From Clostridia bacterium (GTDB lineage: Bacteria; Bacillota; Clostridia; Saccharofermentanales; DTU023): a DNA stretch of 64,000 bases. This document shows positions 34,086 through 60,660 of this stretch, one piece after another; within the stretch, counting starts at the first letter, position 1; every line of letters starts with the position of its first letter. Location: the NCBI GenBank assembly GCA_040767365.1, contig JAXGOR010000002.1, positions 247,150 through 311,149 of the forward strand, in the 5' to 3' direction. The position numbers and the translations under genes are program-made. The notes beneath the pieces are model-generated. The model worked only from the letters and a program-made list of their open reading frames with translations, was not told where the DNA came from and ran no database searches.

Positions 34086-34943
34086 CTAGTTCTCTCCAAC
34101 CTTGTCACCGTCCCGGTTGACCCCGGTCATCTTCCCGTCCTCATACTGGTACCACTCGGCGGCTGATTTGGGGAAGTCGTAGGCTTCCTTGCCTGTCAAG
34201 GGATCAGGATCATCCGAATCCTGGACGATCCCGATGATGCCGTTGTCACCTTCGATTGTAAACAGGTAGAGGGTATTCAGCATAACGGCCCCACCCATAT
34301 AGGTCTGGCCGGCATAACCGTAAGGGGTCCGGACGAATTCCATATAGGGTTTCCTTCCGTCCTCGAAGTCCGCCACCATTACGAAGCGGCCTTCCGCCTC
34401 ATAGTAGTTGGACGTGAAGGTCAGCTTGTTCCCATTTTCATCGGTATAGGTCATAACCGCCTGATCCTTGCCTCTTTCAACCTTAAAATCCTCTATGCCA
34501 TGGAAGAGTCCGACCTGCTCCAGGGCGTAATCGCTGTCCCAGAGAACACTGTAGGCCCACATGATGGCATCCACCTCATAAATGCTTAACAGCTCGGAAT
34601 AGGACCCCATCTCAATCGAGAGGTTCTGAAAGATGCTTCTATTGATATTGCTGATCAAGTCACCCCTCGCGTCCTGGTATTTATAAAATTCACTCTCGAG
34701 CGACCCTTCCTGGCCAAAGCTGTCGTCTTCTCCTCCTATTACAAAATCCTTGCCTTCATCTACAACGCCAGCAACATCCTCAAGAATCTTGCCGACTTCA
34801 TCCTTCAGATCCAAATCCAGATCCGTCTTCTGACCTTTCAAGGCACCTTCCACCAAATCCGCAACATTAGGCGCCCTGGCACACCCGACCACAAATAAAA
34901 TAGCGGCGAGTACCAAGGCCGTTAGGGTTAATATCTTTTTCAT
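34086..34943 (-). CDS. Putative lipoprotein, function unknown
   Basis: Signal peptide with lipobox MKKILTLTALVLAAILFVVGC. GC content is intermediate, and the gene sits at the compositional transition. Confidence 0.6.
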   Translation of the reverse strand: MKKILTLTALVLAAILFVVGCARAPNVADLVEGALKGQKTDLDLDLKDEVGKILEDVAGVVDEGKDFVIGGEDDSFGQEGSLESEFYKYQDARGDLISNINRSIFQNLSIEMGSYSELLSIYEVDAIMWAYSVLWDSDYALEQVGLFHGIEDFKVERGKDQAVMTYTDENGNKLTFTSNYYEAEGRFVMVADFEDGRKPYMEFVRTPYGYAGQTYMGGAVMLNTLYLFTIEGDNGIIGIVQDSDDPDPLTGKEAYDFPKSAAEWYQYEDGKMTGVNRDGDKVGEN

Positions 34944-35555: not shown

Positions 35556-38500
35556 ATAAAGTAGCATATGTTTCGCACATTTGAATAAAGAGGACATGGA
35601 ACCTCGTCTCACTTGGTAAAATTGATTTTAGGAAAAAAGAACCAAGGAGAGTGAAGAACCATGTCCGAGAAAATTATACAGTTGAACGAAGGAATCATCA
35701 AAGAAGAGTTGGGCGAGATGGTGCGGAGATAAATGACAATGTAACCTGGACAGTGAGTCAAAAAAAACGTCCAGCTTAATCTGGCAAATAGAATGTCCTA
35801 CTTATTCAAAGAGTGGACTCTTTCGTCAACCAAAACTTTATACTGTCCTGTACATAGTCCAAGCTCAAGGCGGGCCTTCCCTAAGGAGGCTGCCATGAGC
35901 CACTACCAACACCTGACCCTGGAGGACAGGGTCTTAATCAAATGAAATCGAAGTCGCCGACTTTTTCGTAAGATCGCAAAAGACTTGGGTAAATCCCCCA
36001 CCACCATCTCCCAGGAGATAAAAAAGCATCGGAGCCGTATCGAGAAGAATGCCTTCAATACCCGCTACAACCCTTGTGGGCACTGATTCCACTGTCCTGC
36101 CCAACTTTATGGTGGCTCCTATCAAAAGAAGAAAACCTGTGCCTCCTGCAAGAAGGTCAAGCCCTCTTGCCCTGACTTCAAAGAAGAATACTGCCCACGC
36201 CTGCAAAAGGCACCCTATGTCTGCCATGGCCGCATAAAGAATCGCTGTGGTCTGACTCACATGAGTACATGCCACCGCTGCTCACCATCACCTGGAGCCT
36301 CTGGTCCGAATCCCGTCAAGGGAGGTCTTATTCGCCTGAAGAGAAATGATCTATCCGCAAGATCGTGAAGGCAGATTCAAGTGGGGCTATCGCCTTTACA
36401 TCATCTGGGCCAACCACAAGAACGAACTGCCTTGCCTCACCGGACTATTCATTGGCCCATCCAGGACCGAGCCCTGGCTGAAGTCTCAGGCTTTGACCTG
36501 CCCTACAAGATCCGGTTACCGGCCCAGAAGAAAGAGGCGGGAGCAGCAGATTGACATGGCGGCCGCCGTCAGAGGACCTGCCAGGACTACCTGGCCTTGG
36601 CGGGGAGGACCCCCGGCCCGTCGTCGAGATGGACACGGTCGGTCGACGGTTTCCAAAGGTCATCTTGTCCCTCTATTTCCAAGAGTCCTCTTTGCTCCTC
36701 TTATACTTGAGAGAACGTAATACGGCCCAGTCCGTCATCGATTGCTTTAATCGCCTCTACGATGTCCTGGGCCGGGACAGCTTTTGTCGACTCTTCCCGG
36801 TCCCTCCTCACCGACAACGGATCGGAGTTCTCCAATCCTGTTGCCATTGAGCTTGACCAAGAAGGCCAGCAGACCGGATCTACTATTGTGACCTGGGGAT
36901 GCCAACCAGAAGCCTGGAGTGAAGGGGCCCATGCTAATTTAAGGCGCATTTTACCTTGGCGACGTCTTTCAATGATCTGACCTAGGAAGACCTGAACCAG
37001 GCCGAGGGGCCATGTCAACGGTTTCCTCAGAAAAAGCCGAATGACCGGTCACCAACCCAGTCATTCAGCGCTACTTTCGGAGGGATATCCCCGGAACGCT
37101 TAGGCGTTCCTTTATCGATCCTTCCCAAGTAGTTTTACGCCCAGCGCCCTACAAAAGTAGACTGCTGATTTTTCGGGAAAAAGCCCAGCTCCTCGAACGC
37201 TGCTCTTCTCTAACGTTCCAGGCCATCCAGCTTAAAGTGTCGTAAACGACAAATAGCTCGATGGTTCTGGTTAAGCGCGCTCTTCTTCTGCCGCTCCCCC
37301 ATTCTACCATTTATCTTCGCTTTACGGGGTTTTTCTTGTGACTGCCAAACCCCTCGCTACAGTTTGTTTCAAGTTTTCTTGGATCCCTACTCTACTGTCC
37401 AGGTTAGCTTGTCATTTATCGCGAGATGGTGCGGCAAAGCGTGGAAGATACGCTGAACGCACTTTTGGACGAAGAGGCCGACCGGCTGACCAATGCGAAA
37501 CGCGGAGAGAACGGCTCTGAGGAAGAGTGCTGTGCCGGACACTACAAAAGAAAACTGTTGACACGGGCAGGCGAGGTAGAACTCAAGATGCCCAAGCTTC
37601 GACCTTGACATTTCAAAACTGCCATCATCCAGCGCTACCAGAAACGCGAGATAAGCGGAGGAAGCCTTGGTGGAGATGTACCTGGCCGGAGTCTCTGTAC
37701 GCCGTGTAGAGTGACATCACAGAAGTTCTGGTGGGGCACGGAGTGAGTGCGGGGACAGTCAGCCGCCTCAACCAAAAAGGTATATGCCCAAATTGATTGT
37801 ATCGGCGGAAGCGGTCACTTGAGATGAGTTACCCTTACGTCTACCTTGACGGGATCTATCTCAAGCGAAACTTTGCTGGCAACTTTGAGAATGTGGCCAT
37901 CCTCATCGCGATGGCAGTCAATGAGGAAGGTGAGCGTGAGGTCATTGGAGCCTGTGAGGGGTTACGAGAAGACAAGGAGTCCTGATGGGCTTCCTGCGGG
38001 ATCTTAAGTCAAGAGGACTTCGGGGTACACAGCTTTTCATCGGAGACAAGTGCTCGCTTGCTGGAAGCAGTTCGACACGATTTACCCTGATGCTCGTTAT
38101 TGAAGGCCGGCAGCTGGTCGATTTTACCTGCAATGTGCTGTCAGTTGTTCCCCGTGGGAAGATGAAGGTCGCGGCCATGTTGCGGGCCATCCATGCTCAG
38201 GAGGATCGTCAGGCCGCCATTGCCAAATCCCAGGATGTGATCGCAAGACTCGGGAAATGAAACTGACGAAGGCGGCAAAGAAGGTCGAGGATTCGGTCGT
38301 CGAAACCCTGGAGTATATGTATTTCCCCAGAGAACATTGGCGCAAGATCCGAAGCAACAATGTCATTGAGCGATTGAATCGGGAGATTAAGAGGCGAAAT
38401 ACGGGTCGTAGGCACTTTTCCTGACGGAGAGTCAGCACTTATGCTGGTCTGTGCCCGATTGAGATACATGGAGAGCTCCCTCTGGGTTCTAAATTGTATG

Positions 38501-38651
38501 CGAGTATGAAGCACCTGAAAAACACGAGCTGGAACTCAGATGGAATATGAGGGGGCATAGTGTCAACACGTGCTTTAGTTCTCTCTGACCGGGGGAACCT
38601 AAAGTATCTGCTTCAAGTGAGATAAATGTGCGAAAGATCCTTGACAGTACC
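35555..38651 (+). mobile_element. IS256-family element, copy A (carries a nested IS30-family insertion; transposase is a pseudogene)
   Basis: 8-bp TSD CGGCACTA at 35547-35554 and 38652-38659. Co-linear with copy B (58323-59714) apart from the nested insertion and scattered differences. The transposase frame starts at 35661 (MSEKIIQLNEG...), is split at 35727, and carries further indels (for example a 2-nt deletion at about 37653). Confidence 0.85.
35727..37420 (+). mobile_element. IS30-family element, copy 1 (transposase pseudogene), nested in IS256 copy A
   Basis: Terminal inverted repeats AGATAAATGACAATGTAACCTGGACAGTGAGT and ACTCTACTGTCCAGGTTAGCTTGTCATTTATC. 14-bp TSD GCGAGATGGTGCGG at 35713-35726 and 37421-37434; this sequence is present once in the uninterrupted IS256 copy B. 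Transposase fragments include MSHYQHLTLEDR, GKSPTTISQEIKKHR, VRYRPRKK and LTDNGSEFSNPVAIE, spread over several frames. Confidence 0.85.
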
Positions 38652-39040
38652 CGGCACTACGATAAACGTTATCCTAAATTCCCTTTTTGTTTTCACGTTT
38701 CAAGAAGGTTCTCTCGATCTTAATAATAGTTCATGGCAGAACCAACACATCTACGAACAAATACTATCCACAACAAAAACTGAAATTGACAAGGATTTGA
38801 GATTTTCGTCACTCTATTCTTATCTCGCTTCCATTAAACGCCCTTTCGAGATTGACAGGTTCACTCTTCTTTGCCATCAATGAATGCCTACTATAGCTAT
38901 GTATCTGGTGGCGTGAAAGGGGACCATCAGAAAATGGATGACCTCATCAAATCAATGAGGTTAGGAGATGGAAACCTTCTAGAAAATGTCAGAAAGTCTA
39001 TGAACTCCTTTATGAAAGCGTTGGTGACAGTTTAGTCGGT

Positions 39041-39364
39041 TTGTCAAAAGAACATATTGAAGAGGTGTGCGCAATTCTGTCAGTCAATCCGACGGCAAAA
39101 TCTATCCAGTTCCGGGATGGAAGGTTGAATCCAATCAATGACCTCGCTGAAAAGTTGTCCATCACCCCGTATGGGCTGATGTTACTTGAATATCCATACC
39201 ACTGGCGTTGTCGCTATTCTCACGGTGAAAGCGCTACAATATTGTTCAGTACCCATAATAATGACCGTGCGATCTCAATCCTTCGTGTCCTCAATTGTCT
39301 TCTGACTGACTTTTTGGGAAAGGAGATTCCGAAACTTTTCGATATATTAACAAACTACGACTGA
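39041..39364 (+). CDS. Hypothetical protein, possibly the last fragment of a decayed gene
   Basis: 107-aa ORF with a TTG start. It follows two shorter ORFs in the other two frames (38626-38883 and about 38886-39040), which suggests one gene broken by two frameshifts. Confidence 0.3.
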   Translation: MSKEHIEEVCAILSVNPTAKSIQFRDGRLNPINDLAEKLSITPYGLMLLEYPYHWRCRYSHGESATILFSTHNNDRAISILRVLNCLLTDFLGKEIPKLFDILTNYD

Positions 39365-39595
39365 TTATCGACGCACTGTGCGAATAATTGTTTGTGGCCG
39401 ATTAACCAGAAGCGGTGGCTGGTTTAGGTAACATATTTATTAACCAGAGGATCACATCTCTAGTTCCTAAGTGCTTATAGCAAACAATTGTCAGAATCAC
39501 GTATTCCCGCAATATGAATAAACGTGTTATTGTGTAAATCAGATATATATATATAGCCTATGAGTTTCCATATGTGATTGAGAAGGAGTAGTGCC

Positions 39596-41485
39596 GTGGA
39601 ATGGGTTTTTCCTTTGAACAACGGGGGAGAGATAAAGGGCCTCAGAGATACAGGAATCGAGACATTTAAAGGAGATCCTTTGCGATTCCTAGCCCGAGAA
39701 ATCTGTCAGAACTCACTCGATGCAGGGAAAGAAGGTCAAACGGTTCGAGTTGAGTTTGTCCCCTTTTTTGTTAAGCGGACAGATTTTCCGGGAATAGACT
39801 CTTTGTCGGATGCATTCAGATTAGCCCGTGATTTTTGGGAAATGCTAAAGATTAAACATACCACCCAATTTTTCGAGCAAGCAATCCTTGAATTGCAAAA
39901 AGATTCAATTCCATTTCTAAGAGTAAGCGATTTTAACACCACAGGTCTTAGTGGATCTGATGGAGAATTCAATACGCCTTGGCTGAATCTTACAAAATCA
40001 TCGGGGGTATCTGATAAGGCAGGCACGGCCGGAGGATCATTCGGGATTGGAAAGTATGCCCCCTATGCATGTTCAGCTTTCCAGACTGTATTCTACGGAA
40101 CTATTGATTACGAAAGCAAGGTAGCTTTCCAAGGGGTATCCAGAATAACAAGTTTCCGATTGAGAAATAGCCAAGATATAACCACAAACGTTGGTTATTG
40201 GGGCGACGAGGGCAATAAACCCGCCAAATCATATACATTACTTGACCCGAGATTTGAACGGTCTGCGGAAGATTTTGGGACGGATATTTTCATCACGGGA
40301 TTTAAGTATTTTGATCAACCCGATTGGAAAGAGAACATTCTTGGCTCCATCATAGACGGGTTTTTATTTGCGATTTTTAATAATAAATTGTCTGTTCGGA
40401 TAGAGGATATCGAAATTAATCGCGACACATTACCTAGCATACTGGACGATTACGGCACGTATAGCCAGCAACACGCAGCAAACTATTATGAGGTTCTAGT
40501 TTCTCCTGAAACAAAAAAGTTTTGCGTGGAAAATTTCAATAACCTAGGCGAACTTCGACTAGACTTAATGATACATCCTGAGATGCATAGAAAAGTTGCT
40601 ATGGTCAGGAAGACTGGCATGAAAATTATGGATCGTGGATATATTTCTGGAATTGTTCCTTTTGCAGGTGTTCTATTGATAGAAGGTGACGAAATTAATG
40701 AATACTTAAGAAATTTAGAGAATCCAAGCCATACGGCCTGGGAGCCAGAGCGGATGGAACCTATTTCGAAGAAAGGCCAGGCAGAAAGATATCTCAAAGG
40801 AATCAGGGATTTTATTGTTGAAAGTCTCGAAGAACTTAAGAAAAATGATCCAATTGAAGAAATTGATGCTGACGTCGGTGATTTTTTACCCGATGAGTAC
40901 TCAGATGATGAAACTCAAAAAAGTACAGAATCTGAAAATATCTCAGATAAGACTCAAGATATTAAGAAGCTGACAATCCATACTAGCAGGAAACTTGGTA
41001 GTAAACGAGATGAAGACGGAGTGGAGGGTCTGCCGGACGATGAAGGCCCCCTTGAAGCTGATGTGAATAGGCTGGGGGCCGGTCATAGGGATGGCAAGAG
41101 CCGCGCAGGGGGGCCAGGTGTAGGAGCGGATGAGGGAGAGGGTGAAGGATCTAACTTGGATATTGAAAAACGGAGTCTCAGAGCTGTTAGCCTAGCGAAA
41201 GTGAGATCTATTTGCCTTAACAAAGAAGAAGGACGATACCATTTATCTCTTATCCCCAACGTAACCGCGTCGTCTGGACAAGTCGAAATATTTGTATCTG
41301 CAGAAACTGATCGATATAAGGCTCCCATACGAGATATTCAGGTCATGAATCAACCAGATGCCAATTTTGAAGGTAATCGGATAGTCGATTTGCAGTTTAT
41401 AGAGGGTGAAGCCATTAGGATTCAATTACTCATAGATTATTTTGACTACGTAGCTATGGAGGTTCGAGCACATGGAAATACGTGA
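39596..41485 (+). CDS. Hsp90/sacsin-like GHKL ATPase-domain protein (operon gene A)
   Basis: N-box FLAREICQNSLDA, G1-like VSDFNTTGLSG, G2 box GGSFGIGKYAPYA (compare Hsp90 ELISNSSDA / GQFGVGFYS). Then comes an unassigned middle region, an acidic then Gly-rich linker, and a C-terminal domain of about 100 aa. GTG at 39596 lies 7 nt after AAGGAG. The alternative start is TTG at 39578. Confidence 0.7.
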   Translation: MEWVFPLNNGGEIKGLRDTGIETFKGDPLRFLAREICQNSLDAGKEGQTVRVEFVPFFVKRTDFPGIDSLSDAFRLARDFWEMLKIKHTTQFFEQAILELQKDSIPFLRVSDFNTTGLSGSDGEFNTPWLNLTKSSGVSDKAGTAGGSFGIGKYAPYACSAFQTVFYGTIDYESKVAFQGVSRITSFRLRNSQDITTNVGYWGDEGNKPAKSYTLLDPRFERSAEDFGTDIFITGFKYFDQPDWKENILGSIIDGFLFAIFNNKLSVRIEDIEINRDTLPSILDDYGTYSQQHAANYYEVLVSPETKKFCVENFNNLGELRLDLMIHPEMHRKVAMVRKTGMKIMDRGYISGIVPFAGVLLIEGDEINEYLRNLENPSHTAWEPERMEPISKKGQAERYLKGIRDFIVESLEELKKNDPIEEIDADVGDFLPDEYSDDETQKSTESENISDKTQDIKKLTIHTSRKLGSKRDEDGVEGLPDDEGPLEADVNRLGAGHRDGKSRAGGPGVGADEGEGEGSNLDIEKRSLRAVSLAKVRSICLNKEEGRYHLSLIPNVTASSGQVEIFVSAETDRYKAPIRDIQVMNQPDANFEGNRIVDLQFIEGEAIRIQLLIDYFDYVAMEVRAHGNT

Positions 41486-42365
41486 GAAACTGTATCCTTA
41501 TCCTGTCTTAGCTACATTTACAGATGATTATCGGGATAGTTATTTTGAAACTGTTTTCGATCTACAAAAAGACGGATACGATCTGTGTCTTCACATCTTA
41601 TCTGAACTAAAAAACGAAGAACTCCAAACCCTGCTACTAGAGAATAGAGTGAACTTTGTTTACCACATCGAATGTTCTCAAACAGGTTATAGAGTGGCAG
41701 TCAACACCAATCGCAACGTCTTTGAACATAGAATTATTGATAGCAAAGTTAGCGGAAGACTGCAAGTTTGCTCCTTTATCATTGCCTGCGAGGATTTATC
41801 AAACTATACCAATCAATTGCTACATGGAGACTATAGCGGTTTCACATTTGCTATCGACAGAGGGAATATAATGGCAGTCGGATCACAAAGCGATTTTGAG
41901 ATCGAAAAGACTTTAAGTGATCTGTCGTACGTGCCCTCCGTGATTGCCATTGTTAAGAATCCTGAAGTAGACGCCGAGGGCATGCTAGTGAGTATTGATC
42001 AAAATAAAATAGTAATCAGAATACCTGAAAACGATTTTTACAATTATCGAAGCCTTTCAAAAGAGGTAGGTGCAAAATCTATATTACGATCCCTCATTAT
42101 TGTGCCTGCACTAGCTTACGTGTTAACCGAAGTTGCTAAAAGAGATCCTTCAGAACGCTATATCTATAGTTCTTATTCTTGGTATTTGGCGATTAAGAAA
42201 AACCTGCGCACGATATTCGAATGCAATATAGAAAGTGAAGACTTCGCAGAGTTAGACATGTTACGTCTAGCGCAAAGGATTTTGAATTCTCCGCTTGGGA
42301 AAGCATTATCCACCTTGGCTCAAGATTATGGGATTTTTGTAGGAGATGGTGACGAATGGATTTAG
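41472..42365 (+). CDS. Hypothetical protein (operon gene B)
   Basis: 297-aa ORF. Its ATG overlaps the end of gene A by 14 nt, and GGAGG lies 9 nt upstream. No motif recognised. Confidence 0.6.
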   Translation: MEIREKLYPYPVLATFTDDYRDSYFETVFDLQKDGYDLCLHILSELKNEELQTLLLENRVNFVYHIECSQTGYRVAVNTNRNVFEHRIIDSKVSGRLQVCSFIIACEDLSNYTNQLLHGDYSGFTFAIDRGNIMAVGSQSDFEIEKTLSDLSYVPSVIAIVKNPEVDAEGMLVSIDQNKIVIRIPENDFYNYRSLSKEVGAKSILRSLIIVPALAYVLTEVAKRDPSERYIYSSYSWYLAIKKNLRTIFECNIESEDFAELDMLRLAQRILNSPLGKALSTLAQDYGIFVGDGDEWI

Positions 42366-43081
42366 TGATTATTAGTGAAGACAGTCTGCTTGATTTACGA
42401 AGCAATTTACCGAGCATACTGCACTATTTTACGGAATCAACTCCTCATTGGCTCAATGAGTATTTTGGCTTTTCGCCATTCCTGGAGACAAAGTATTCGG
42501 TTGAAGACTTCGCTCTGGATATGTCAGCGGATAGGCCATTTCATACAGAATTTGAGAACGTAAAGCGTGTGTATAACCGTCTGAATTTTCTGACCTGTTC
42601 GGAAGCCTCAGATGAGCGTTTATGGGCTGGGTTATGCCTTAAGTATTTTTGGAAATATGTCCAATATCGGTGGAATATTGTGAATCAATGCACACTTGAG
42701 AATGTCTTGCAGCATTATTTTTTTGGCTTTGGGGCTCGTCGCTCTCTGACACGAAATGCTTTGTCTAGACTTTGGTGGATTGGCCACCTGACTTATGACG
42801 ATGAACGGAAAAATCCCTATGCTTTAACTCAATTTGTGTGTGAAAATTCGAATTATATTATGCATATATTGGAACGGAACACATCAAACAATCCCGATAT
42901 TGTTAGGCCCTTCATATCAGCAATTATTGAAGCCCGTTCAGAAGGGTATTCGATCAACACAAATGTCGTAGCAACCTTGTCTCGATATCTCAATTTGTTG
43001 GGGGGAACTTACCTGCTTGATTGTCTCCCACAAGAGATAATTCAAAGAAAAGTAATCGATTACCTGCGGCTTATTTCATAA
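42356..43081 (+). CDS. Hypothetical protein (operon gene C)
   Basis: 241-aa ORF. Its ATG overlaps gene B by 10 nt, and AGGAG lies 10 nt upstream. Trp-rich segments ERLWAGLCLKYFWKYVQYRW and LSRLWWIGHL. No family confidently recognised. Confidence 0.6.
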   Translation: MDLVIISEDSLLDLRSNLPSILHYFTESTPHWLNEYFGFSPFLETKYSVEDFALDMSADRPFHTEFENVKRVYNRLNFLTCSEASDERLWAGLCLKYFWKYVQYRWNIVNQCTLENVLQHYFFGFGARRSLTRNALSRLWWIGHLTYDDERKNPYALTQFVCENSNYIMHILERNTSNNPDIVRPFISAIIEARSEGYSINTNVVATLSRYLNLLGGTYLLDCLPQEIIQRKVIDYLRLIS

Positions 43082-43094
43082 CTGTAGAAAAAGA

Positions 43095-45824
43095 TTGCAA
43101 TATATGTACAAAAATATTTCTGAACTACTAGACGACCCAAAATTTGAGAAGATCGTCCATTATTTAGGATCAAATAAAATTCTTTCATTGGATGACCTGA
43201 TTAATTTTGATGTAGAAGACTTATATTTCATCCCAGGAATAACTTTAGGATTGGTAGAGGAAACCCAAAATAGAATCAATGACTATTTAAAAGGTAAGAC
43301 TCGTATTGCAGACACAGAGATCAACCACAATTTGGAAAAACTAATTCAGACGGGGAAAAGGCGAGCATGCCATCCCACAGAGAACAAAAAAGTCTCAATT
43401 GTTGGGACAGATCCTCAGATAAAAGAAGAGTCAGATAAAAGCGAGGTATGTACAAATAACTATGTCAGAATTCCGATTGATGTTGCGTATGTAAATAGCA
43501 AAAAAGGCGCGTGGTTTGTAAAGTTCTGTTGTGACCGAGGGAAGGTTTTCATGGATCAACTCTCTGAGGAAGATTTTTCTGAACTTAATAGCCAGATAGG
43601 TATAGGCGTAAAGTTTAAGTTGCAGTTGGAAGAGATTTTTAATGAATATCAATCTTCGCCATCGTCTTTTAGTGAACGCTCATCTGAAATTGATTTATCC
43701 CTTTTCGCACATCGCCACTTTTCGACAAATACAAGTCGCTGGCTTAAGAGTGCAGGTATCCGAACCATCAAGGCCATGCGAGGATTTGATTTTGATTATC
43801 TGCTTGATCTTGGCCGAATGAATCGGACCATCTATCGAGAAATAACAGGTTTCCTACATCACTTGAAGGGGCAACCGATTACTAAAAAGAGTCGAGAAAT
43901 TGCTAAAAGTAGTAAGATATATTCTACGAACGATATTGCATCGGAGAACTTTCATATCCAACTCCGTGTTTTCACTCTCTTGTATCTTTTATCTGAGGCA
44001 GATTACCAGGCTTTAGAAGCACGAGGACTTCACATCGTAGGTGATTTGTGCGATCGGGTACTAGACTCATTTGAGCTTGCTGTCGTGGAACGAATTGTTG
44101 GCAAGATTGTTACACCGGTTCTTGAGCAGTACCTACATGCTTTCGAGAGCCTCCCAGATAACCACCGCTCGATCTTGATAAGTAGAGCGACCGGCGATAC
44201 GCTACAGGAGATTGGCGACCGCATCGGGCTTAGTCGAGAAAGAATTAGACAAATTTCAAATAAAGCAACAAAACGTTTGATTAATTGGGCGGTTCTTTTC
44301 GGTGGGTCATTGCTGGGCGAAATGCGGCGTTTTGTTTCTTATAACGAGCTTCTGGAAGCGTTTGATGAACAAGTACATGCCTCGATTATTTCTTTGATTT
44401 ATCGAGAATACACGACCATACAGTATTTAGATTTTCGAGATAAATTCGACTATTTCCCTCAGACCATTTCGGTGTGCGAGCAGTTTGAAATGATGGCACG
44501 CGATCTTATCGGTGATGGTGTAGATTTCTACGATCAAATTGATGTTATTGAAGATGAGTTGGATGTAAGGGGATTAGGGGAGCTAGATTTCGAAGATTTC
44601 ATGCATTATCTGATAAGTTGCGGATATCGTTTTTATGGTGACTTTGTGGCTCTCGACCAGAAGGCCTCAACCCTTATCTATTACGACGCAATCGATCGAT
44701 ATTTTTCCTTGGATATTAAACTTGACTCCAAGAAAGAAAATGAAGATATGAATAAACTGAGGAAAGAAGTTGAAATGAAGTACCCGGGATTCCGTCAACC
44801 TAAAGATAATCGCTCGTTGACTGCCATGATAACGAGAAATCCGCGAATAATTCTCTCTGGTCGTGGAACTTATCGCCCAATTAGCAAGATTGTATACAGT
44901 CGACCGCTACTCAACGAAATTCGGGAATATATACAAAACAGTACCCTGCCCTCGCTATACTATTTTGAATTGTTCGAATCGTTCAAAGGCCGCTTGCTGG
45001 CGGAAACAAGTATCGACAATTATCATCTACTTCATGGGATGCTTAAATACTTGTTTAAAGAATCTTTTTCTTTTAGGCGCGATAGAATCGCTAAATTGGG
45101 AGAAAAACACCTTACCGTTGACGATAGGATTGTCCAGCTTATTCTAAATCTCGGCCGACCAATTACTAAAACGGAAATCAGAAGAACAATTCCAGGCATT
45201 TCTGATTTTGTAATTGCTTTTGCAATAGAAAGAGTTCCGGACTTGATTCAATGGGATAACAACCGGTTTAATCACGTCGACAACGTGCGTTTAGATGATT
45301 ATGCACAAAAAGTATTTTCCGAATGCCTGAAATCGTTGACCAGCGATTCAGGATACACGAGTGCCCAATTATTTTATAAAAAAACATATGATTTATACCC
45401 GCAAGTCATTGAGAACAATAATCTTGAAAACTCAGACAACCTTTTTTATGTTGCATCCTACTATTTAGATAAAGAGTTTCGTTTTAATAGAAAACATATC
45501 GCGTCGTTGGATTTTCCGGTGGAGGAACTTACTGTTGCTAACATAGTTCGCCATTTCTTAGGTGATAAGGATTCTTTCTCTTATGAGGAGTTGCTTGAAT
45601 TGGCGCGTGGGTATGGCTGGTCAACAGCTTCTCTCTACAATACTATTTCTTCACTGAAATCTTACTACGTTAGAGTGGCGGAGGATGAATACATTAAGAG
45701 AGATCTTCTCTGTATATCCCAATCGGATCAGATTGCCATCAAAACGTTACTTGAAAATTTGACGCGACCATCGGGGTACTTTGCCCTCTTTAGTATTTTC
45801 GACTACCGGATGTTTCTGATATAG
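43095..45824 (+). CDS. Large DNA-binding protein with alpha-CTD-like HhH repeats and sigma-70 region-4-like HTH (operon gene D)
   Basis: 909 aa. HhH modules lie at about residues 19-66, 143-185, 205-256 (STNTSRWLKSAGIRTIKAMRGFDFDYLLDLGRMNRTIYREITGFL) and 292-345. A sigma-r4-like HTH lies at residues 352-397 (LPDNHRSILISRATGDTLQEIGDRIGLSRERIRQISNKATKRL). The remaining roughly 500 aa are unassigned. Start is TTG at 43095 or ATG at 43104. Confidence 0.65.
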   Translation: MQYMYKNISELLDDPKFEKIVHYLGSNKILSLDDLINFDVEDLYFIPGITLGLVEETQNRINDYLKGKTRIADTEINHNLEKLIQTGKRRACHPTENKKVSIVGTDPQIKEESDKSEVCTNNYVRIPIDVAYVNSKKGAWFVKFCCDRGKVFMDQLSEEDFSELNSQIGIGVKFKLQLEEIFNEYQSSPSSFSERSSEIDLSLFAHRHFSTNTSRWLKSAGIRTIKAMRGFDFDYLLDLGRMNRTIYREITGFLHHLKGQPITKKSREIAKSSKIYSTNDIASENFHIQLRVFTLLYLLSEADYQALEARGLHIVGDLCDRVLDSFELAVVERIVGKIVTPVLEQYLHAFESLPDNHRSILISRATGDTLQEIGDRIGLSRERIRQISNKATKRLINWAVLFGGSLLGEMRRFVSYNELLEAFDEQVHASIISLIYREYTTIQYLDFRDKFDYFPQTISVCEQFEMMARDLIGDGVDFYDQIDVIEDELDVRGLGELDFEDFMHYLISCGYRFYGDFVALDQKASTLIYYDAIDRYFSLDIKLDSKKENEDMNKLRKEVEMKYPGFRQPKDNRSLTAMITRNPRIILSGRGTYRPISKIVYSRPLLNEIREYIQNSTLPSLYYFELFESFKGRLLAETSIDNYHLLHGMLKYLFKESFSFRRDRIAKLGEKHLTVDDRIVQLILNLGRPITKTEIRRTIPGISDFVIAFAIERVPDLIQWDNNRFNHVDNVRLDDYAQKVFSECLKSLTSDSGYTSAQLFYKKTYDLYPQVIENNNLENSDNLFYVASYYLDKEFRFNRKHIASLDFPVEELTVANIVRHFLGDKDSFSYEELLELARGYGWSTASLYNTISSLKSYYVRVAEDEYIKRDLLCISQSDQIAIKTLLENLTRPSGYFALFSIFDYRMFLI

Positions 45825-46132
45825 GCTTTGATTGGAATGCGCACCTTCTGGCACACATAATTAAAGAGTACGACGTTAGCCACAGATTACTCGAGCCAAT
45901 GAACTCAAATCGTGGCCCTCAGAGGGGTGTTATTGTCTCACAAGTCCATGATTGTAAAACGCACGATGATCTAGTGTTTAGATATCTTAAACAAAATAAT
46001 ATTAAAGTGATCACGAGAAAAGATCTTCAAAAATTACTGGAAAGTGCGGGTATTATCGAAGGAGCCCTTGCATTTGACATTGATAGTTCCCCGCATTGGA
46101 CAATAAAGGGTGACCGTCTTTTTGTCGGATAA
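45794..46132 (+). other. Open frame continuing gene D in the -1 frame (probable C-terminal extension separated by a frameshift)
   Basis: This frame has no stop from 45794 to the TAA at 46130-46132 and overlaps the last 28 nt of gene D. The translation reads sensibly (..LPDVSDIGFDWNAHLLAHIIKEYDVSHRLLEPMNSNRGPQRGVIVSQ...). The ORF track lists only 45899-46132. Confidence 0.45.
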
Positions 46133-46265: not shown

Positions 46266-47837
46266 TTATTCTAACTCAGCATTATGCATATCTTGTAATT
46301 TAACCTGCCTGCCACACGAAAAAAGCTCTCGTATCTTGTCGTGCGAATAGGGTTTTAGCCTGTGCAAGTCAACAAGTTCTATCATCCTAGAAACACTTAT
46401 GCCTGAACCATCAAGGTTTGTTGCTCTAACGATAGAATTCAATTGTTTGTCAAAAGATGCCGAAAAACCACCCGCAATATATAGGAAAAAACTTAACGGC
46501 GCTAATGAGTCACTGTATTCACTAAAACCACCAATGTAATTATGGACCATCCTATTGTAATGGTCATTGCTAATCGAATATGATCTGTAAGCCTTATTAT
46601 CGATAATTGCCTGATAATTTGAATCTGAGGATAAGATAAGAACGTCCGGTGTTTTACCAAGGGGACCAACATGGGTGGCCTGGAATCCGAAAATTTCTTG
46701 GAATAGTTCAACGGTCGCTTTCTCAAAATTTGTAGCCTGATCAAAGCCTTTAAAAGCCATATCAAAATAATTTGCTAGGAAACCTCCAATAGCCCCTTGC
46801 GGATAAAATCTGTACAAAGTGTCCAAGACAATCTCACTGTCAAGACCGGTTCGTTCTGAAATATATTCAGCGAGGTTAGCGCTAATTTTTACAATCGGCG
46901 TTGCAAGAGCTTTCTCAAGAAAGGCTCTTCTAATTTGTTGTTCGATAATCATTTGGCCAGTGATAGTTCTCGATCCCTCGAGATTCCGTGTGTCTTTACG
47001 ATGATTAGGATCAACTCCAAATTTTCGTTGAAAATATTCGTGGCTTTCTGGCCTGTCTATCAAAGGTGAAGGGGATGTCAAGATCTTTGTGACCTCATCG
47101 AACCGGTCTTCAATTATCCTTATGGTTTTTGATTCGCGTTCGATGAGCTGCGTATATTCAAGCCAGTTGACCAGTGTATTGGCAACATCAAATAATCTTT
47201 CAAATGGGTATTCTTGATTAACATTTGCTCGCGAGGGTTTATATTTCTCAAAAAAATCCGCCGCCAAACAATTATCACCAAATTCTCTAAATTCTAGAAC
47301 CCGGTTAACAACGTGCTCGAAACACTCATCATCTTCATTTTCTGCTTCTGTGATGATGATTTTGGCAATCTCTTCCTCGGTCAGGACACGAATTCGGCTG
47401 TCCGATAGTAGGCGTAACAAAAAGAGGAAAGGACGAATGCGAAATCTGTCTGAAACTTTAACACCTCTTCTTATTGAGAAAGCAGAAGGGAACTGATACT
47501 TGAGTATTTGATTCTTTAGCACAGTGACTGGATTATCACCATTAATAATTGCTTCTCCAGCCAAAGTGAGTTGCACACGATTTGTCGTTTCTTGTGTAAA
47601 GATCAAACCGAGACTCAGTAGCCACGCGGCGTAAGTGCGAGCGCCACCACCTCCTTGATCACGGCGGATGCCATGTCGTTTAATTTCGTCACGTTCGAGA
47701 GTTTCTTCGAGTAATAGATGTGTATTTCGCTGACCTTGCCATTCCGCATCGAGAGAAACTTCAACGAAGGTAGCTAAAACAGAAGGGATGCTGTTCAGTT
47801 TTCTCTTTGGTCTCGTGACCCACCAATAATTGATCAT
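46266..47837 (-). CDS. Type IIS restriction endonuclease, AlwI family with FokI-like cleavage domain
   Basis: N-terminus WWVTRPKRKL, and ILKYQFPSAF / IRPFLFLLRLL, as in N.BstNBI/AlwI-family enzymes. The C-terminal TPDVLILSSDSNYQAIIDNKAYRSYSISNDHYNRMVHNYI closely resembles the FokI catalytic segment (..IVDTKAYSGGYNL..EMQRYV). It starts 10 nt after the methyltransferase stop. Confidence 0.65.
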   Translation of the reverse strand: MINYWWVTRPKRKLNSIPSVLATFVEVSLDAEWQGQRNTHLLLEETLERDEIKRHGIRRDQGGGGARTYAAWLLSLGLIFTQETTNRVQLTLAGEAIINGDNPVTVLKNQILKYQFPSAFSIRRGVKVSDRFRIRPFLFLLRLLSDSRIRVLTEEEIAKIIITEAENEDDECFEHVVNRVLEFREFGDNCLAADFFEKYKPSRANVNQEYPFERLFDVANTLVNWLEYTQLIERESKTIRIIEDRFDEVTKILTSPSPLIDRPESHEYFQRKFGVDPNHRKDTRNLEGSRTITGQMIIEQQIRRAFLEKALATPIVKISANLAEYISERTGLDSEIVLDTLYRFYPQGAIGGFLANYFDMAFKGFDQATNFEKATVELFQEIFGFQATHVGPLGKTPDVLILSSDSNYQAIIDNKAYRSYSISNDHYNRMVHNYIGGFSEYSDSLAPLSFFLYIAGGFSASFDKQLNSIVRATNLDGSGISVSRMIELVDLHRLKPYSHDKIRELFSCGRQVKLQDMHNAELE

Positions 47838-47847
47838 AATTTACTTC

Positions 47848-48918
47848 TTACCAAACCATATTACACTCGATGCAAGGGTATGTGAGATTTGCAAAAGTAT
47901 TTAAGATGGACTCAAAAATAATTTGTGCTCCCGTGCAGGGCACCGCCATCCCAATTTGTCGTCGAACTTGTTCCTTTGTTCCCTGGAAAAAGAAATCATC
48001 TGGAAAAGTCTGTAACCTGGCTCGCTCGCGGTTTGTTAGTGCACGATGTTCCTTGTAATGATAGATGTGCGTACCACCTCCTCCGGACCCAGTTACAGTG
48101 TATGCGGGCTTGTCTGGGTCTAGCCTCTTATATATTTGACTGATTTTGGCGCCCTTAACATTTAGCTGTAATTCGGGTGGAAGATCCGCAGTGAAGGCAT
48201 TTTCTCCAGGTTTGATGTGTTTCAATCTTTCGACAACAATTGATGACTGATTTGTAAATTCATGATTCAAGGCGTCGGGAGAAATGGGGGGATTTTCAAG
48301 CGCATTTCGGCAAGTGTTATCAATGCTCAAGTATGGTTCTGTTGAAGGCGGAAAAAAGTGCATAGGTAGATCTTCTCTAATCCCCACGATTATAATCCTA
48401 TGGCGTGCTTGCGGAACTCCGTATTGCTCAAACTTATATAGATGAGGATATATCCGATAACCTGCTTGGATGAAGTGTTCGAAAATTATTGCCAATGCCC
48501 CGCCTTTGTTTGCGCTCCTTAATCCGCCAACATTTTCTGCTAGGAACCACAGCGGTTGATGAGATTTCAAGACCTTGACGCCGTACGAATACAACGGGCC
48601 ATAGTCACCGTCAATCCCTCTTTGTTCGCCAACCACCGAGAAGTCATTGCAGGGGAAACCAAATGAAAGTGCATCAATCGCGGGCAAAGAAAAGGTATCC
48701 AGTTCCCTAACATCTTCTTGAATAACACTTTCCGGAACGCCCGGGCATATATTGAATCTAAAAGTTTCACAGGCTGCCGGATCAATGTCGGTAGCCCAAA
48801 TGTGCTTGATTCTGTGTTGACCGTCGAGCGAACGTGCCTGCATACCACCGTATGCTAGTCCTCCAGGCCCACAAAACAACTCGCCCATTCGATAAATAGT
48901 ATCCGTCTCGGTTGCCAA
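47848..48918 (-). CDS. DNA (cytosine-5)-methyltransferase
   Basis: Motif I ELFCGPGGL, motif IV GFPCNDFS, motif VI LAENVGGL, motif VIII QARHRIIIVG, motif X RALTNRERARLQTFPDDF. TTG start, 7 nt after GGAG. Confidence 0.9.
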   Translation of the reverse strand: MATETDTIYRMGELFCGPGGLAYGGMQARSLDGQHRIKHIWATDIDPAACETFRFNICPGVPESVIQEDVRELDTFSLPAIDALSFGFPCNDFSVVGEQRGIDGDYGPLYSYGVKVLKSHQPLWFLAENVGGLRSANKGGALAIIFEHFIQAGYRIYPHLYKFEQYGVPQARHRIIIVGIREDLPMHFFPPSTEPYLSIDNTCRNALENPPISPDALNHEFTNQSSIVVERLKHIKPGENAFTADLPPELQLNVKGAKISQIYKRLDPDKPAYTVTGSGGGGTHIYHYKEHRALTNRERARLQTFPDDFFFQGTKEQVRRQIGMAVPCTGAQIIFESILNTFANLTYPCIECNMVW

Positions 48919-51296: not shown

Positions 51297-52351
51297 ATGA
51301 AACGTATTGCACTTTTATTAGTCATCGCACTGCTTACTACAGTGCTGTTCTCCCTGCAGCCGCCGGTGGAGGAACCTACGCAACCAAGTAAGGAAGACTT
51401 AGCCCCAGAACCTTCTGTCACCGAAACTGAGGGTGATACCCAGAGCCAGTTGATTATTCTAATATGAAGGTCGTAATCCTGTTGCCCGGTGTGATTACAG
51501 ATGGCGGCTGGTGCTCCATTGGCCACAGCATAGTCGAAAATTTGTCGGACAAGTATGGTATGACTGGTTCTTATGTCGAAAACATTGCCGTTTCTGACAT
51601 GGAAGAATATTTGAGGATGTACGCTGAAGATAATTATGATTTGATTATCGTTCACGGGTCACAATATATAGATAACATGATCAAGGCCGCTAAAGAATTT
51701 CCAGAAATCAACTTTTGCGTTTCATACGGAGATGAGGATGTCTCGGAAGGACTCAATAATGTTGGTTGCGCAGGGATGAAAAACATGGGAATTATGATAG
51801 GCGCAATTATGGGAGTGTTGACCGATGATAACCACGTGTGTTTCCTTGCGGGAGAAGAAAATCCGGTCTTCACTGGGATGGTTAATACGATCGAAGAAGG
51901 TGTTCGCCTTACAAACAAAGAATGCAAAGTCGACCTTGCCTATATCGGCACCATCACTGACCAAAGTATGGCCAAAGAAATGGCAATAAGCTACATCGAT
52001 GCGGGTGTAGATGTCATTTCCTCTGCCGCTAATGCTGCACAAGTCGGGGTACTCGAAGCTGCTGAAGAAAAAGGAATATTGTGCCTTGGGACCAACACGG
52101 ATCAGTATGAACTCGCGCCAGACGCAGTAGTGCTATCAGTAATGCGTAATTATCCTGCTATCTATGAGAATGTAGTAATTGACATTGCGAATGGTACATT
52201 TGCCGGTGGTCTCCTCGATTATGGACTTGCTCAAAATGGGACCCTCGTGTCCGAGTGGCATGGATGGGATGAAAAATTGCCTACTGAAAAAGTCGACGAA
52301 GTCAATCGTGTAGTCGCGGGTTTGTTAGCCGGAGAGTTTGGTGATTATTAG
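51297..52351 (+). pseudogene. BMP-family (PnrA-like) ABC substrate-binding protein, split into a signal-peptide ORF and a mature-domain ORF
   Basis: 51297-51467 encodes MKRIALLLVIALLTTVLFS... plus a linker. 51464-52351 encodes KVVILLPGVITDGGW..., the typical start of a mature BMP domain. The two frames overlap at ATGA, so a single -1 shift within 51438-51464 would fuse them. Confidence 0.6.
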
Positions 52352-52918
52352 GCAACCCGTGCGTAGTTTTGTGATATTTCTATATTTGTAGTGATACATG
52401 AGACTCCCTCGCGCATTGAAAGATGTCGAGATCAAGGAGAGTTCCCCAGCAGCGAGACTCCATTACGAAACAAAAGTGTTCAAATGGAGGATCGCTGTTG
52501 GGGAGAAACATCCACATCAGTGTTGAAGTTTTTGCTACACATCGAAGTATCTCCTTCTGGTCAAAGGTGTAAGATTATCGCTTCTAACCTCTGAATGGTT
52601 TTTGTGCCTCCGAGACGAGATGCCTGTTGCTAATAAATTCGCGGTGGATGGTCTTGAAAAATGAAAATTGTCGAGATAGTTGCATTTGATAACTCGCATT
52701 CTTGGCGTAGATAAAGGCTTGCATTCTTGAAATGTACCGACGCGTTATCATCGAGAATCGACTGCTTAGGTGTTTTTTAATGTGTTCGAAAAGTTGCGCA
52801 TTGATGGCGAGAATACTGATTGCAGTCCAGCGGACCGAAGTGAACCTAGTCAAGCTCCATCAAATGGCTAAACGATAATAAGTATGAGAATAAATGGACC
52901 GTGAAGGAATTCAATTAA

Positions 52919-53998
52919 ATGAAATCAAATGTTAAGAAATTCTGTAACCGTCTTGATTTGTGGCAAGTATCGGTATCAGTATTTTCAATTTGTGTATCGA
53001 TGCTAGTTGGTATCGGCCTAATTGCTTTGATGGGTATAGACCCAGTCAAGGCCCTCAACTCCCTATGGGAAGGCTCTTTTAGCAGTATAAAGGCTGTTGC
53101 CGAAACTACCGTAAAAATGACTCCCCTCCTATTTACTGGGATGAGTTATGCTCTTGCCAACAGATGTGGATTGACCAATCTTGGTATGGAGGGCCAGCTT
53201 TATATGGGGGCGTTATTCGCTTCCATTGTTGGCATCTATGTCAGCGGCTTGCCTAGCATTTTGCATGTACTACTCACAATTTTGGCCGGTATGTTGGGGG
53301 GCGGATTGTGGGGATTAATTGCAGGTACCCTGAAAGTATTCTTTCGAGCTAGTGAAATCATTACTACCGTTATGTTGAACACAATCGCTATAAACTTAGT
53401 TGAGTTTATGGTGAATGGCCCAATTATTGAGCCACCCGGCATCAACAACCAAACGAGACCCGTACTTGAAAGCGCGCGGCTAAATAGAATAGTGCCAGAT
53501 ATGCGAGCACATTGGGGATTTCTAGTCGCGATAATGGTTCTGATCTTGTTTTGGTTTTTCCTATTTAAAAGTAAAAAAGGATTTGAGGTTCGAGTGTCAG
53601 GTCAGAATACATTCGCAGCGACTTATTCTGGCATTAATACGAGAAGAAACATTTTGTTGATTATGTTTCTGGCAGGTGGCGTCGCTGGACTCGCTGGATG
53701 TATTGAAATAATTGGCGTTCAGACTAGGTTGGTTCCTGTAATATCACCTGGGTATGGGTTTGATGGAATTGCGGTGTCCCTCATCGGAAACAACGCTCCT
53801 TGGGGCATATTCTTCGGCGCCTTATTGTTCGGTGCTTTCCGTGCTGGAGGTAATCGTATGCAAATGCGTACACAAACTCCAATCACTATCATAAGTGTGA
53901 TCCAGGCATTGGTGATCATTGCAGTTATTAGCGGGAATATTCTAACGGACAAAATTAAAGCACGTAAGATGGTTTATTCACAGTCTGCAACGGAATAA
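52919..53998 (+). CDS. ABC transporter permease (BMP/nucleoside-type, first subunit)
   Basis: 359 aa, polytopic, and in the same operon as the BMP binding protein and the double-cassette ATPase. Confidence 0.8.
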   Translation: MKSNVKKFCNRLDLWQVSVSVFSICVSMLVGIGLIALMGIDPVKALNSLWEGSFSSIKAVAETTVKMTPLLFTGMSYALANRCGLTNLGMEGQLYMGALFASIVGIYVSGLPSILHVLLTILAGMLGGGLWGLIAGTLKVFFRASEIITTVMLNTIAINLVEFMVNGPIIEPPGINNQTRPVLESARLNRIVPDMRAHWGFLVAIMVLILFWFFLFKSKKGFEVRVSGQNTFAATYSGINTRRNILLIMFLAGGVAGLAGCIEIIGVQTRLVPVISPGYGFDGIAVSLIGNNAPWGIFFGALLFGAFRAGGNRMQMRTQTPITIISVIQALVIIAVISGNILTDKIKARKMVYSQSATE

Positions 53999-54011
53999 AG
54001 GAGGAAAATAT

Positions 54012-54935: not shown

Positions 54936-54942
54936 GTGGTTT

Positions 54943-56472: not shown

Positions 56473-56530
56473 ATTTATGGTAATAGTCATAATCAATTGA
56501 TAGAGAATACCTTTATTCCAGGAGGAAACT

Positions 56531-60063: not shown

Positions 60064-60660
60064 TTAGTGTTTACCTTTGTAGCTATCAATATCATTAACA
60101 AATAATTCAAGCAAATCTCCTGGGGCAAGATTTTTATTCTTATGGCCAAGATCCTTTCTAATCAGCATAAGCAACTTTTCTAACTCAAAAATATTGGTGC
60201 CATTCGGGTTTGTTGATTGGTCTGGAGAGGGTAATGAACTACGATATCTCCCCCATTGCAAAATTACCTCATCTGAGCCCCAGATCATCAGGTTTGTTGT
60301 AAACTGGATCAGGTCCTTTACCAGATCTTCTTCTCTTGGTTTATGCTCATTACTTAATCTGTCCTTCAATAAATAGTTCATAGTGAATTCAAAAAAATGG
60401 AGATACAAAGGAATTTTTCTTTCACGCAAATCTTGTTCTACTGAACGTTTTTTTTCCAGATATTTCCCAGTCATCACAGAAAATACGGAGACAAGTATCG
60501 TCGCTACTGCTGCAATAATTGATGCTTGAACTTCTTTTTGAATACTTGCAAAGTATATAAAAAACCATCTACCTACCCAAAATATTCCTACTGCTATTAA
60601 TATTAAGATAAGCCAACCAATAACTAAAGTAATTTTTTTATCTTCATTTTGTGTGGACAT
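60064..60660 (-). CDS. Two-TM membrane protein with cytoplasmic helical domain, function unknown
   Basis: I prefer ATG at 60660 (MSTQNEDKK), 5 nt after GGAGG. Two hydrophobic helices lie at the N-terminus, followed by a charged soluble domain of about 130 aa. Confidence 0.45.
   Translation of the reverse strand: MSTQNEDKKITLVIGWLILILIAVGIFWVGRWFFIYFASIQKEVQASIIAAVATILVSVFSVMTGKYLEKKRSVEQDLRERKIPLYLHFFEFTMNYLLKDRLSNEHKPREEDLVKDLIQFTTNLMIWGSDEVILQWGRYRSSLPSPDQSTNPNGTNIFELEKLLMLIRKDLGHKNKNLAPGDLLELFVNDIDSYKGKH

Follow-up and report, generated by a model that had tools for sequence, protein, structure and literature searches.

An extended form of the candidate defence cassette PDC-M33 in a Clostridia bacterium

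Gene content of the locus

We analysed a stretch of 64,000 nucleotides (nt) from a Clostridia bacterium (assembly GCA_040767365.1, contig JAXGOR010000002.1, positions 247,150 to 311,149), here called the window, and in particular an operon of four genes, A to D, that converges on a restriction-modification (R-M) gene pair (Table 1). An earlier reading of the letters alone (the sequence-only reading) had picked out these four tightly coupled, same-strand open reading frames (ORFs) at 39.6-46.1 kb as a candidate undescribed defence system that maps to no named system, with B and C as orphan genes. Their coordinates, sizes and overlaps were reproduced, but the gene set does have a name, since A, B and C are PDC-M33A, B and C of the PADLOC database. 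Gene A matched its model with an E-value of 1.5e-202 over profile positions 3-625 of 627, gene B with 3.3e-93 over positions 1-281 of 289, and gene C, which also belongs to a Pfam family, with 3.2e-95 over positions 1-240 of 247. With all three hidden Markov models matched by adjacent genes on one strand in the order A>>B>>C, the core of this operon is a PDC-M33 cassette.

PDC-M33 corresponds to cassette CAS_00129, with the order FAM_02818>>FAM_02838>>FAM_01881 (supplementary file 8) and 98 instances in RefSeq, and is one of 145 'untested phage defence candidates' that Payne et al. (bioRxiv 10.1101/2024.01.29.577857) proposed on the principle of guilt-by-embedding, the host loci being BREX, DISARM or Type I R-M. 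The later tests of such candidates did not include it, and our literature searches on 'PDC-M33' and 'DUF6339' returned no paper. The word 'undescribed' thus holds for the function of the system and not for its existence. The catalogue entry consists of three genes without a function, and excludes gene D, a small protein that we call S and any methylase or endonuclease partner. Compared with that entry, the window copy adds gene D, which is broken, and the R-M pair, and is without S. It is an extended six-gene form of PDC-M33, composed of A-B-C, the accessory gene D and a convergent endonuclease and cytosine C5 methylase. New here are this extended composition (methylase with or without endonuclease, S and an optional D), the link between D and BREX type 4-like systems, and predicted folds for the A and B proteins.

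Genes A to D form a single operon with translational coupling. The overlap is 14 nt between A and B and 10 nt between B and C, and a gap of 13 nt (22 nt to the ATG of D) separates C from D. Ribosome-binding sites had been reported inside the preceding genes, and were found for B (GGAGG, 41457-41461) and for C (AGGAG, 42341-42345), each 10 nt ahead of the start codon, but no good Shine-Dalgarno sequence was found before D. For gene A, a TTG at 39578 would yield a protein of 635 amino acids (aa; 39578-41485), and the GTG at 39596 is the likelier start because AAGGAG (39583-39588) precedes it by 7 nt. The A-B-C order with overlapping junctions is repeated in ~90 independent loci, which is more than chance would produce.

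The convergent pair downstream is a predicted Type II/IIS R-M system, with an endonuclease that carries recognition and cleavage domains (Pfam RE_AlwI, 2.6e-11, and FokI_cleav_dom, 2.2e-17, both in one protein) and a predicted cognate methyltransferase. Both genes are also matched by the PADLOC models REase_II/MTase_II. This agrees with the type IIS pair on which the operon had been said to converge.

Table 1 Coordinates of features in the window and of selected features in related loci (L numbers; positions are those within each locus)
Feature	Position	Strand	Description
Gene A (PDC-M33A)	39596..41485	+	629 aa from the likelier GTG at 39596
Gene B (PDC-M33B)	41472..42365	+	297 aa
Gene C (PDC-M33C, Pfam DUF6339)	42356..43081	+	241 aa
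Gene D, pseudogene as sequenced	43095..46132	+	Frame 3 ORF 43095-45824, 909 aa
Single 1-nt indel splitting gene D	45815..45818 (~45816)	+	..ATG TTT C-T GAT ATA GGC..
Endonuclease, type IIS-like	46266..47837	-	AlwI-family recognition part and FokI-type cleavage domain; convergent on gene D
C5 cytosine DNA methyltransferase	47848..48918	-	Pfam DNA_methylase, 4.4e-72
IS256-family (Transposase_mut) transposase fragments	37426-38260 and 58676-59224		Frameshifted, degraded
IS21 (IstA/IstB)	62003-63945		Apparently intact; end of window
Clusters headed by D relatives	L005:3714-17058, L006:4132-17500, L010:224-13136, L101:354-13845, L102:608-13862, L103:1335-9051		
Protein S, examples	L023:9726-9959 (typical), L004:519-749, L097:7728-7958, L098:1907-2131		
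~530-aa C5 methylases, examples	L026:4203-5807, L022:2008-3681		With an insertion in the methylase domain

The sequence-only reading had assigned gene A to the GHKL ATPases, which is upheld by motifs and by the predicted fold and draws no support from sequence searches against Pfam or the PDB. Against Pfam, nothing was found even at E <= 10, which leaves the protein outside the HATPase_c family, and neither phmmer nor a 36-sequence profile found a relative among PDB sequences; NCBIfam likewise gave none. The GHKL motifs are nonetheless invariant across 49 homologues (629-aa numbering): motif I, ExxxNxxD, with E35, N39 and D42; motif II, DxxxxG, with D112, G117, L118 and G120; the Gly-rich motif III of the ATP lid, G146-G147-S-F-G150-I-G152-K153; and the transducer pair R338/K343. 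An AlphaFold2 model built from these 49 homologues (predicted local distance difference test score, pLDDT, 75.7) places a GHKL ATPase and transducer at aa 1-420, a disordered acidic and Gly-rich linker at aa 421-525 and an all-beta C-terminal domain at aa 533-628. Foldseek matched the model to PDB structures of Hsp90/TRAP1, TopoVI-B, MLH1/MutL, GyrB/ParE 43K and MORC2/3/4, with E-values of 1e-7 to 1e-4 and template modelling scores of only 0.3-0.5. These matches span 370-480 columns and therefore cover both the Bergerat fold and the transducer domain. No nuclease fold was found by Foldseek anywhere in the protein, the all-beta C-terminal domain included. Gene A is thus, at the level of motifs and predicted fold, a GHKL ATPase with a transducer domain.

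The protein of gene B is predicted (AlphaFold2, pLDDT 82) to have an N-terminal beta-sandwich region at aa 10-185, followed by a helical bundle at aa 186-286 and an acidic tail. Its residues H65, E67, C68 and C100 are invariant. Foldseek returned only generic Ig/FnIII-like matches (E >= 1.3e-3), and no nuclease, Toprim or winged-helix fold was found in the model; nor were there sequence relatives in Pfam, NCBIfam or the PDB. Given this predicted fold, we rejected the idea that A and B form a TopoVI-like cleavage pair with B in the role of Spo11/Top6A, or that B is some other nuclease partner. Gene C belongs to Pfam PF19866 (DUF6339; E 2.6e-55) and carries invariant W/R-rich motifs, W140, W141 and D148 being among the invariant residues, with relatives in 1370 representative clusters by exhaustive phmmer and none among PDB sequences by profile search. 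Some long DUF6339 proteins have fused domains, one being a likely chimeric call of C with a C5 methylase and another having a sub-threshold DpnI_C/DUF4357 match; they were uninformative. Hidden kinship of B or C with D was also considered and rejected (hhalign probability <1%).

Related loci and their partner methylases

Relatives of gene A form at least 1437 clusters, all annotated 'hypothetical'. They occur in 280 species-representative genomes, mostly of Clostridia and Negativicutes, with some in Treponema and Bacteroidales and one in a planctomycete. We surveyed the loci of the best-scoring 80 of these 280 genomes, with genes called by a simple ORF script. The sequence-only reading had proposed looking for the homologues in the same order across genomes, and indeed A-B-C is contiguous and on one strand in essentially all 80 loci, as it is in metagenome, plasmid and phage loci. 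Directly upstream of A, 54 of 79 loci encode protein S, which is ~75 aa long and strongly conserved (core ..KFVRIAEARTNKIIDMIxLLGNCSN..YEYT..DV.KIF.AIE.EL..AK.KF..). No relatives of S were found in Pfam, PADLOC or the PDB, including by PDB profile search, and tblastn did not find it in the window.

The R-M pair is more than a mere neighbour, as it had been taken to be: the conserved cassette includes the C5 methylase and, in this clade, also the endonuclease. Among 41 loci with at least 2.5 kb on both sides, and counting C5 enzymes only, a methylase lies no more than two genes from the cluster in 33 and three to four genes away in 3 more; some loci have none. When ORFs of at least 250 aa were compared, C5 methylases accounted for 50 of the 112 near the cluster and for 7 of the 273 farther away in the same flanks (odds ratio 30.6, p 6e-24). 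In addition, the neighbourhoods contain Type II, IIS, Sau3AI-like, NgoFVII-like and EcoRII-like R-M genes, Vsr and C-protein-like helix-turn-helix (HTH) proteins. The layout of the window recurs in L093 and L094 (63% identity in A), where A-B-C and an intact D of 1020 aa are followed by an endonuclease and a methylase, both on the minus strand. In L001 (75% nucleotide identity), A-D is followed directly by a methylase with 76% nucleotide identity to that of the window; the endonuclease is absent and behaves as an indel. Endonucleases of the AlwI/FokI type are located 5' of A in L037, L046 and L067 and 3' of D in L093/L094. Since the endonuclease and methylase of the window recur with A-D in other lineages, the unit here is one of six genes.

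The partner methylases fall into four main classes that differ in position and strand. The first, found in 29 loci, is a family of ~530 aa without a conserved endonuclease. The second, of ~350 aa, includes the window's enzyme and often comes with an AlwI/FokI endonuclease. The third is a group of 312-422 aa with NgoFVII_C- or EcoRII-C-type endonucleases, and the fourth consists of methylase-NgoFVII fusions of 680-697 aa. Divergence of the ~530-aa methylase parallels that of A (Mantel r 0.85, reached by none of 2000 permutations), and these apparently 'orphan' methylases beside PDC-M33 are probably not orphans. They carry an insertion between the N- and C-terminal halves of the methylase domain, which in L026 is ~165 aa long (aa ~129-295); as noted, no endonuclease gene is conserved beside this family.

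Functional dependence on the methylase is best supported by three things taken together: the endonuclease-less methylase loci, the co-divergence with A and the retention of the methylase in L001. They also bear on a different explanation, in which PDC-M33 is an autonomous, methylase-independent defence system with its own sensor and effector that lodges beside or inside R-M loci and thereby gains co-transfer and co-regulation, like other 'embedded' systems. Such lodging would agree with the discovery of PDC-M33 through embedding in BREX, DISARM or Type I R-M loci, as most of the embedded cassettes that were tested proved to be independent systems, and with the variety of partners, which belong to several unrelated methylase classes in varied positions and strands. 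Distant copies that sit amid adenine N6 R-M genes, and the loci without a methylase, point the same way. However, 29 loci in which a methylase that has no endonuclease co-diverges with A would not be expected of chance neighbours, L001 has kept its methylase while losing the endonuclease, and adjacency to a methylase is near-obligate rather than occasional. On balance we hold an autonomous system to be unlikely.

PDC-M33 is also carried by mobile elements, with A homologues on 23 plasmids. The Priestia megaterium plasmid p3_GEB3 has S-A-B-C with a convergent Sau3AI-like endonuclease and dcm, and the temperate [Clostridium] innocuum phage NatCom_9291 (PV036421.1, L098:1907-8274) has, immediately following its integrase, S-A-B-C (the C protein being 354 aa long) and a C5 methylase, a prophage-borne instance of the system. 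On Ligilactobacillus salivarius megaplasmids, A-B-C lies between hsdS/hsdM and MmeI-like genes, and on a Lactococcus lactis plasmid the cluster is beside an AlwI endonuclease and two adenine methylases. The distant branch (~30% identity) accompanies N6 R-M, whereas the window's branch accompanies C5 methylases.

This distribution, along with the fold of A, is relevant to a role outside immunity, namely that a MutL-like ATPase complex maintains DNA containing 5-methylcytosine by aiding the repair of T:G mismatches or of methylase-DNA adducts that stem from the linked C5 methylase. In the close clade, the linked methylases are of the C5 and not the N6 kind, A has the predicted fold of MutL/MLH1, and MutL is known to assist Vsr repair (PMC2292703). 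Yet neither an endonuclease nor a glycosylase fold was found in A or B, distant copies occur with N6 adenine R-M, and carriage in the lysogeny region of a phage and on dairy plasmids also speaks against such a role. Vsr itself is present in 6 neighbourhoods and has thus not been replaced, which rules out A-B-C as a Vsr substitute. Maintenance of methylated DNA therefore appears to us a most improbable function.

Gene D, its relatives and the surrounding island

Gene D was confirmed to combine helix-hairpin-helix (HhH) units of the RNA polymerase alpha C-terminal domain (alpha-CTD) type with a sigma-70 region 4 HTH, both in the window and, by Pfam, among 34 homologues. The alpha-CTD-like units are N-terminal, the Sigma70_r4 HTH is at aa 349-395 (Pfam E 8.5e-11), and a conserved C-terminal region of ~600 aa follows. 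In the homologues, Sigma70_r4 was found in 29 of 34 and RNA_pol_A_CTD in 18 of 34, the best of the latter with three repeats and an E-value of 7.7e-36. The D family is rare (14 clusters in a word-indexed search), and D is present in 18 of 41 complete PDC-M33 loci (~44%).

In the window, gene D is frameshifted. The intact homologue P0002 (1012 aa) aligned by tblastn in two parts, aa 4-907 with frame 3 (43104-45815) and aa 909-1011 with frame 2 (45818-46126); frame 3 is open to 45824 and frame 2 covers 45818-46132. The shifted tail that had been recognized from the letters is thus real, with a length of 103 aa and not ~110. The database call for this gene starts at the ATG at 43104 and gives 906 aa. 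With D frameshifted and S missing, this copy of PDC-M33 may be partly decayed.

A stronger version of this notion holds that the window copy is a decaying, non-functional remnant, whatever the family does. Besides the 1-nt frameshift and the missing S, the degraded IS256-family fragments and the IS21 in the same island are in keeping with decay. Against this, A, B, C, the endonuclease and the methylase are all full length with every invariant residue, D is optional in the PDC-M33 family, and S is likewise missing from the intact sister loci L093/L094 and from L001, L037, L046 and L067. The frameshift could also be a sequencing error. We therefore consider a non-functional copy somewhat unlikely.

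Among 10 independently found D clusters, two follow A-B-C (L001-L004), six head systems with a phosphoadenosine phosphosulfate (PAPS) reductase (L005, L006, L010, L101, L102, L103), one precedes SNF2, AAA_23, Dnd-associated and N6 methylase genes (L008, L009) and one stands alone (L011, L012). Four of the six PAPS-reductase contexts (L005, L006, L010, L101) are BREX type 4-like, with BrxP, a ~1400-aa protein, PglZ and BrxL. In L102, the D relative occurs with a BrxL-ATPase protein and a cysteine desulfurase, and the context in L103 is partial. D is thus an optional module common to modification-based defence systems and not a core PDC-M33 gene, and its contexts suggest that D-like proteins are a common, undescribed accessory of such defences. 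One D homologue matched the PADLOC PglW model (6.9e-14); others matched MzaA, in the HTH only. A 617-aa gene upstream of the D homologue in L009 was considered as a relative of A and ruled out (18% identity). Separately, one PAPS-reductase cluster other than the BREX type 4-like ones encodes a cysteine desulfurase and a NADAR protein. Beside the loci of PDC-M33, D and a methylase-NgoFVII fusion in L003 and L004, we also observed a three-gene HD-CE / ORC-CDC6-like / HFX_2341_N cluster (L003:13528-17374 and L004:10477-14323), which looks like another defence-type cassette.

The presence of D relatives at the head of other modification-based systems would be in line with D acting as a sensing or output surface in a guard of R-M. 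In such an arrangement, the ATPase complex would monitor the methylase or endonuclease and, once a phage anti-restriction protein had put either out of action, would fire and halt growth or transcription, much as PrrC does with EcoprrI. Linkage is tight to many R-M types and not to one recognition sequence, as would suit a guard, and the lack of a nuclease fold in A or B fits as well. Nevertheless, many loci have a methylase only, and hence no restriction activity to guard, and no recognisable toxic effector was found. A guard function thus seems very unlikely.

The operon lies within a low-GC island of ~30 kb. The G+C content (GC) of the block is 38-43% (~40%), compared with 62% in the flanking DNA and 59-66% in kb 1-34 of the window. 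The AT-rich, insertion sequence-bearing character that had been attributed to this region was borne out by the GC values, the IS256-family fragments and the IS21. No such support was found for a 'HEPN-like' gene that had been placed ~15 kb downstream: no Pfam match reached the family's curated cut-off, and nothing supports the label at 60064-60684 (206 aa) or 61357-61965 (202 aa), where it would be expected. These two ORFs, and another at 34086-34943 (285 aa), had no significant Pfam match. The same island also contains, at 51464-57718, a Bmp/PnrA-type binding protein, two permeases, an ABC ATPase and an amidohydrolase, which make up an uptake operon of the nucleoside type; the island therefore holds more than defence genes. 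Two small low-GC ORFs 5' of gene A (39041-39364, 107 aa, and 38626-38883, 85 aa) matched no protein family and did not significantly resemble the DNA that precedes A in L001. A scan for promoters and terminators gave signals not above shuffled expectation.

A possible mechanism and comparison with known systems

Our combined findings are compatible with the PDC-M33 cassette being a methylation-linked defence module of the MORC/paraMORC type, an ATP-driven add-on to restriction-modification. The defence role as such, which the sequence-only reading had put forward, is plausible from context and comparison, and we give the more specific reading about even credence. We infer it from the gene identities, the predicted folds of A and B, the synteny, the methylase linkage and the carriage on plasmids and a phage. 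In such a scheme, the methylase would mark the host's own DNA, and A would dimerise on ATP as MutL, Hsp90 or MORC do. B as a beta-sandwich/helical adaptor, C (DUF6339) and, where present, S would be synthesised in constant proportion to A, owing to translational coupling, and would form a complex with it. Dependent on methylation, this complex would act on DNA that lacks the mark as its target, either by passing it to the linked endonuclease or by blocking it without cutting, as BREX does, and any anti-phage effect would come from this step. D may supply contacts with DNA, RNA polymerase or both through its alpha-CTD-like and sigma-4-like domains, as an optional sensor or regulator.

Several points weigh against this methylation-linked module. 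The strongest are the diversity of the methylases and the N6 contexts of the distant copies: four or more unrelated methylase classes, with N6 enzymes beyond them, are difficult to explain by specific binding between the proteins, and co-location alone, or an autonomous system that lodges in R-M loci, would account for them as well. The Mantel correlation can also be obtained from simple linkage or shared host history. The survey of the best-scoring loci is biased to close relatives, and the methylase count detects only C5 enzymes. Neither a nuclease nor any other effector fold was found in A or B, the two proteins modelled, and the catalogue itself lists PDC-M33 as an 'untested' candidate.

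A bolder version of the methylation-linked module would dispense with cutting. Here, PDC-M33 would be a nuclease-free bacterial counterpart of eukaryotic MORC silencing, in which DNA without the cytosine methylation of the cassette is clamped or compacted by A together with B, C and S, so that its replication or transcription is blocked. The alpha-CTD and sigma-4 copies in D would serve as decoys or contacts that sense phage factors hijacking RNA polymerase or that keep the polymerase off clamped DNA. We regard this as quite unlikely. If it were true, the D-type module would be a common sensor of BREX type 4-like, phosphorothioate-like and PDC-M33 systems.

Among known systems, Mza resembles the window operon in combining a GHKL ATPase with a large sigma-70 region 4 HTH protein, and is often found beside cytosine methylases. 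However, no PADLOC Mza model matches A-D of the window, and the NCBIfam MzaA model aligns with gene D only at aa 365-395, with 17.7 bits against a cut-off of 800. Across D and its relatives, the similarity to MzaA is confined to the ~30-residue HTH (E 5e-5 to 7e-3), which is C-terminal in MzaA and central in D. BREX, both type 2 with PglW and type 4 with BrxP-BrxC-PglZ-BrxL, is likewise a multi-gene defence that relies on methylation or modification and has a large ATPase but no obvious nuclease. Its ATPase is of the AAA+/P-loop kind, whereas gene A encodes a predicted GHKL ATPase, and neither Pfam nor PADLOC found PglZ, BrxC/PglY, BrxL, PglX or BrxP at 39-49 kb. In the Shedu type I-D protein VcSduA (paraMORC3), a GHKL ATPase is required for phage defence (PMC12137116). 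In VcSduA, that ATPase is fused to a DUF4263 nuclease of the PD-(D/E)xK type within one polypeptide; no nuclease domain was found in gene A by Pfam, PADLOC or Foldseek. For topoisomerase VI, the partner subunit needs a Toprim and 5Y-CAP fold, which the model of gene B is without. With their defining components looked for and absent, the window system is not Mza, BREX, Shedu I-D or TopoVI-like.

In its proposed mode of action, the cassette is like MORC and paraMORC. GHKL ATPases were linked on the basis of genomic context in 2008 to R-M operons mostly holding cytosine methylases (Iyer, Abhiman, Aravind, PMC2292703). Gene A is like MORC/paraMORC in its GHKL and S5-type transducer architecture, and shares their patchy and laterally mobile distribution (PMC2292703). 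The likeness is one of fold and context, as A has no detectable sequence similarity to Pfam GHKL models and has a beta-sandwich C-terminal domain of its own. MORC proper and paraMORC1-5 are set apart by a GhXhhpXXRhl motif in the S5 domain, specific to MORC, or by C-terminal domains particular to each family (RE-fold nuclease, TIR or HxH domain), and the all-beta C-terminal domain of A gave no nuclease match. Moreover, that work does not describe the fixed partners of PDC-M33 (S, B and DUF6339), and most PDC-M33 loci have no helicase.

For annotation, PDC-M33 is best scored jointly with the methylase, S and D, and D as a module of BREX type 4-like and other PAPS-reductase systems points to a common sensor or regulator of modification-based defences. 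PDC-M33 is abundant, and occurs also on the plasmids of dairy lactococci and gut lactobacilli and in a gut temperate phage. It offers a simple, well-defined core, with no nuclease fold in the two proteins modelled, and a near-obligate methylase partner, in which it can be tested whether a MORC-like ATPase is able to discriminate and neutralise unmethylated DNA in a bacterium.

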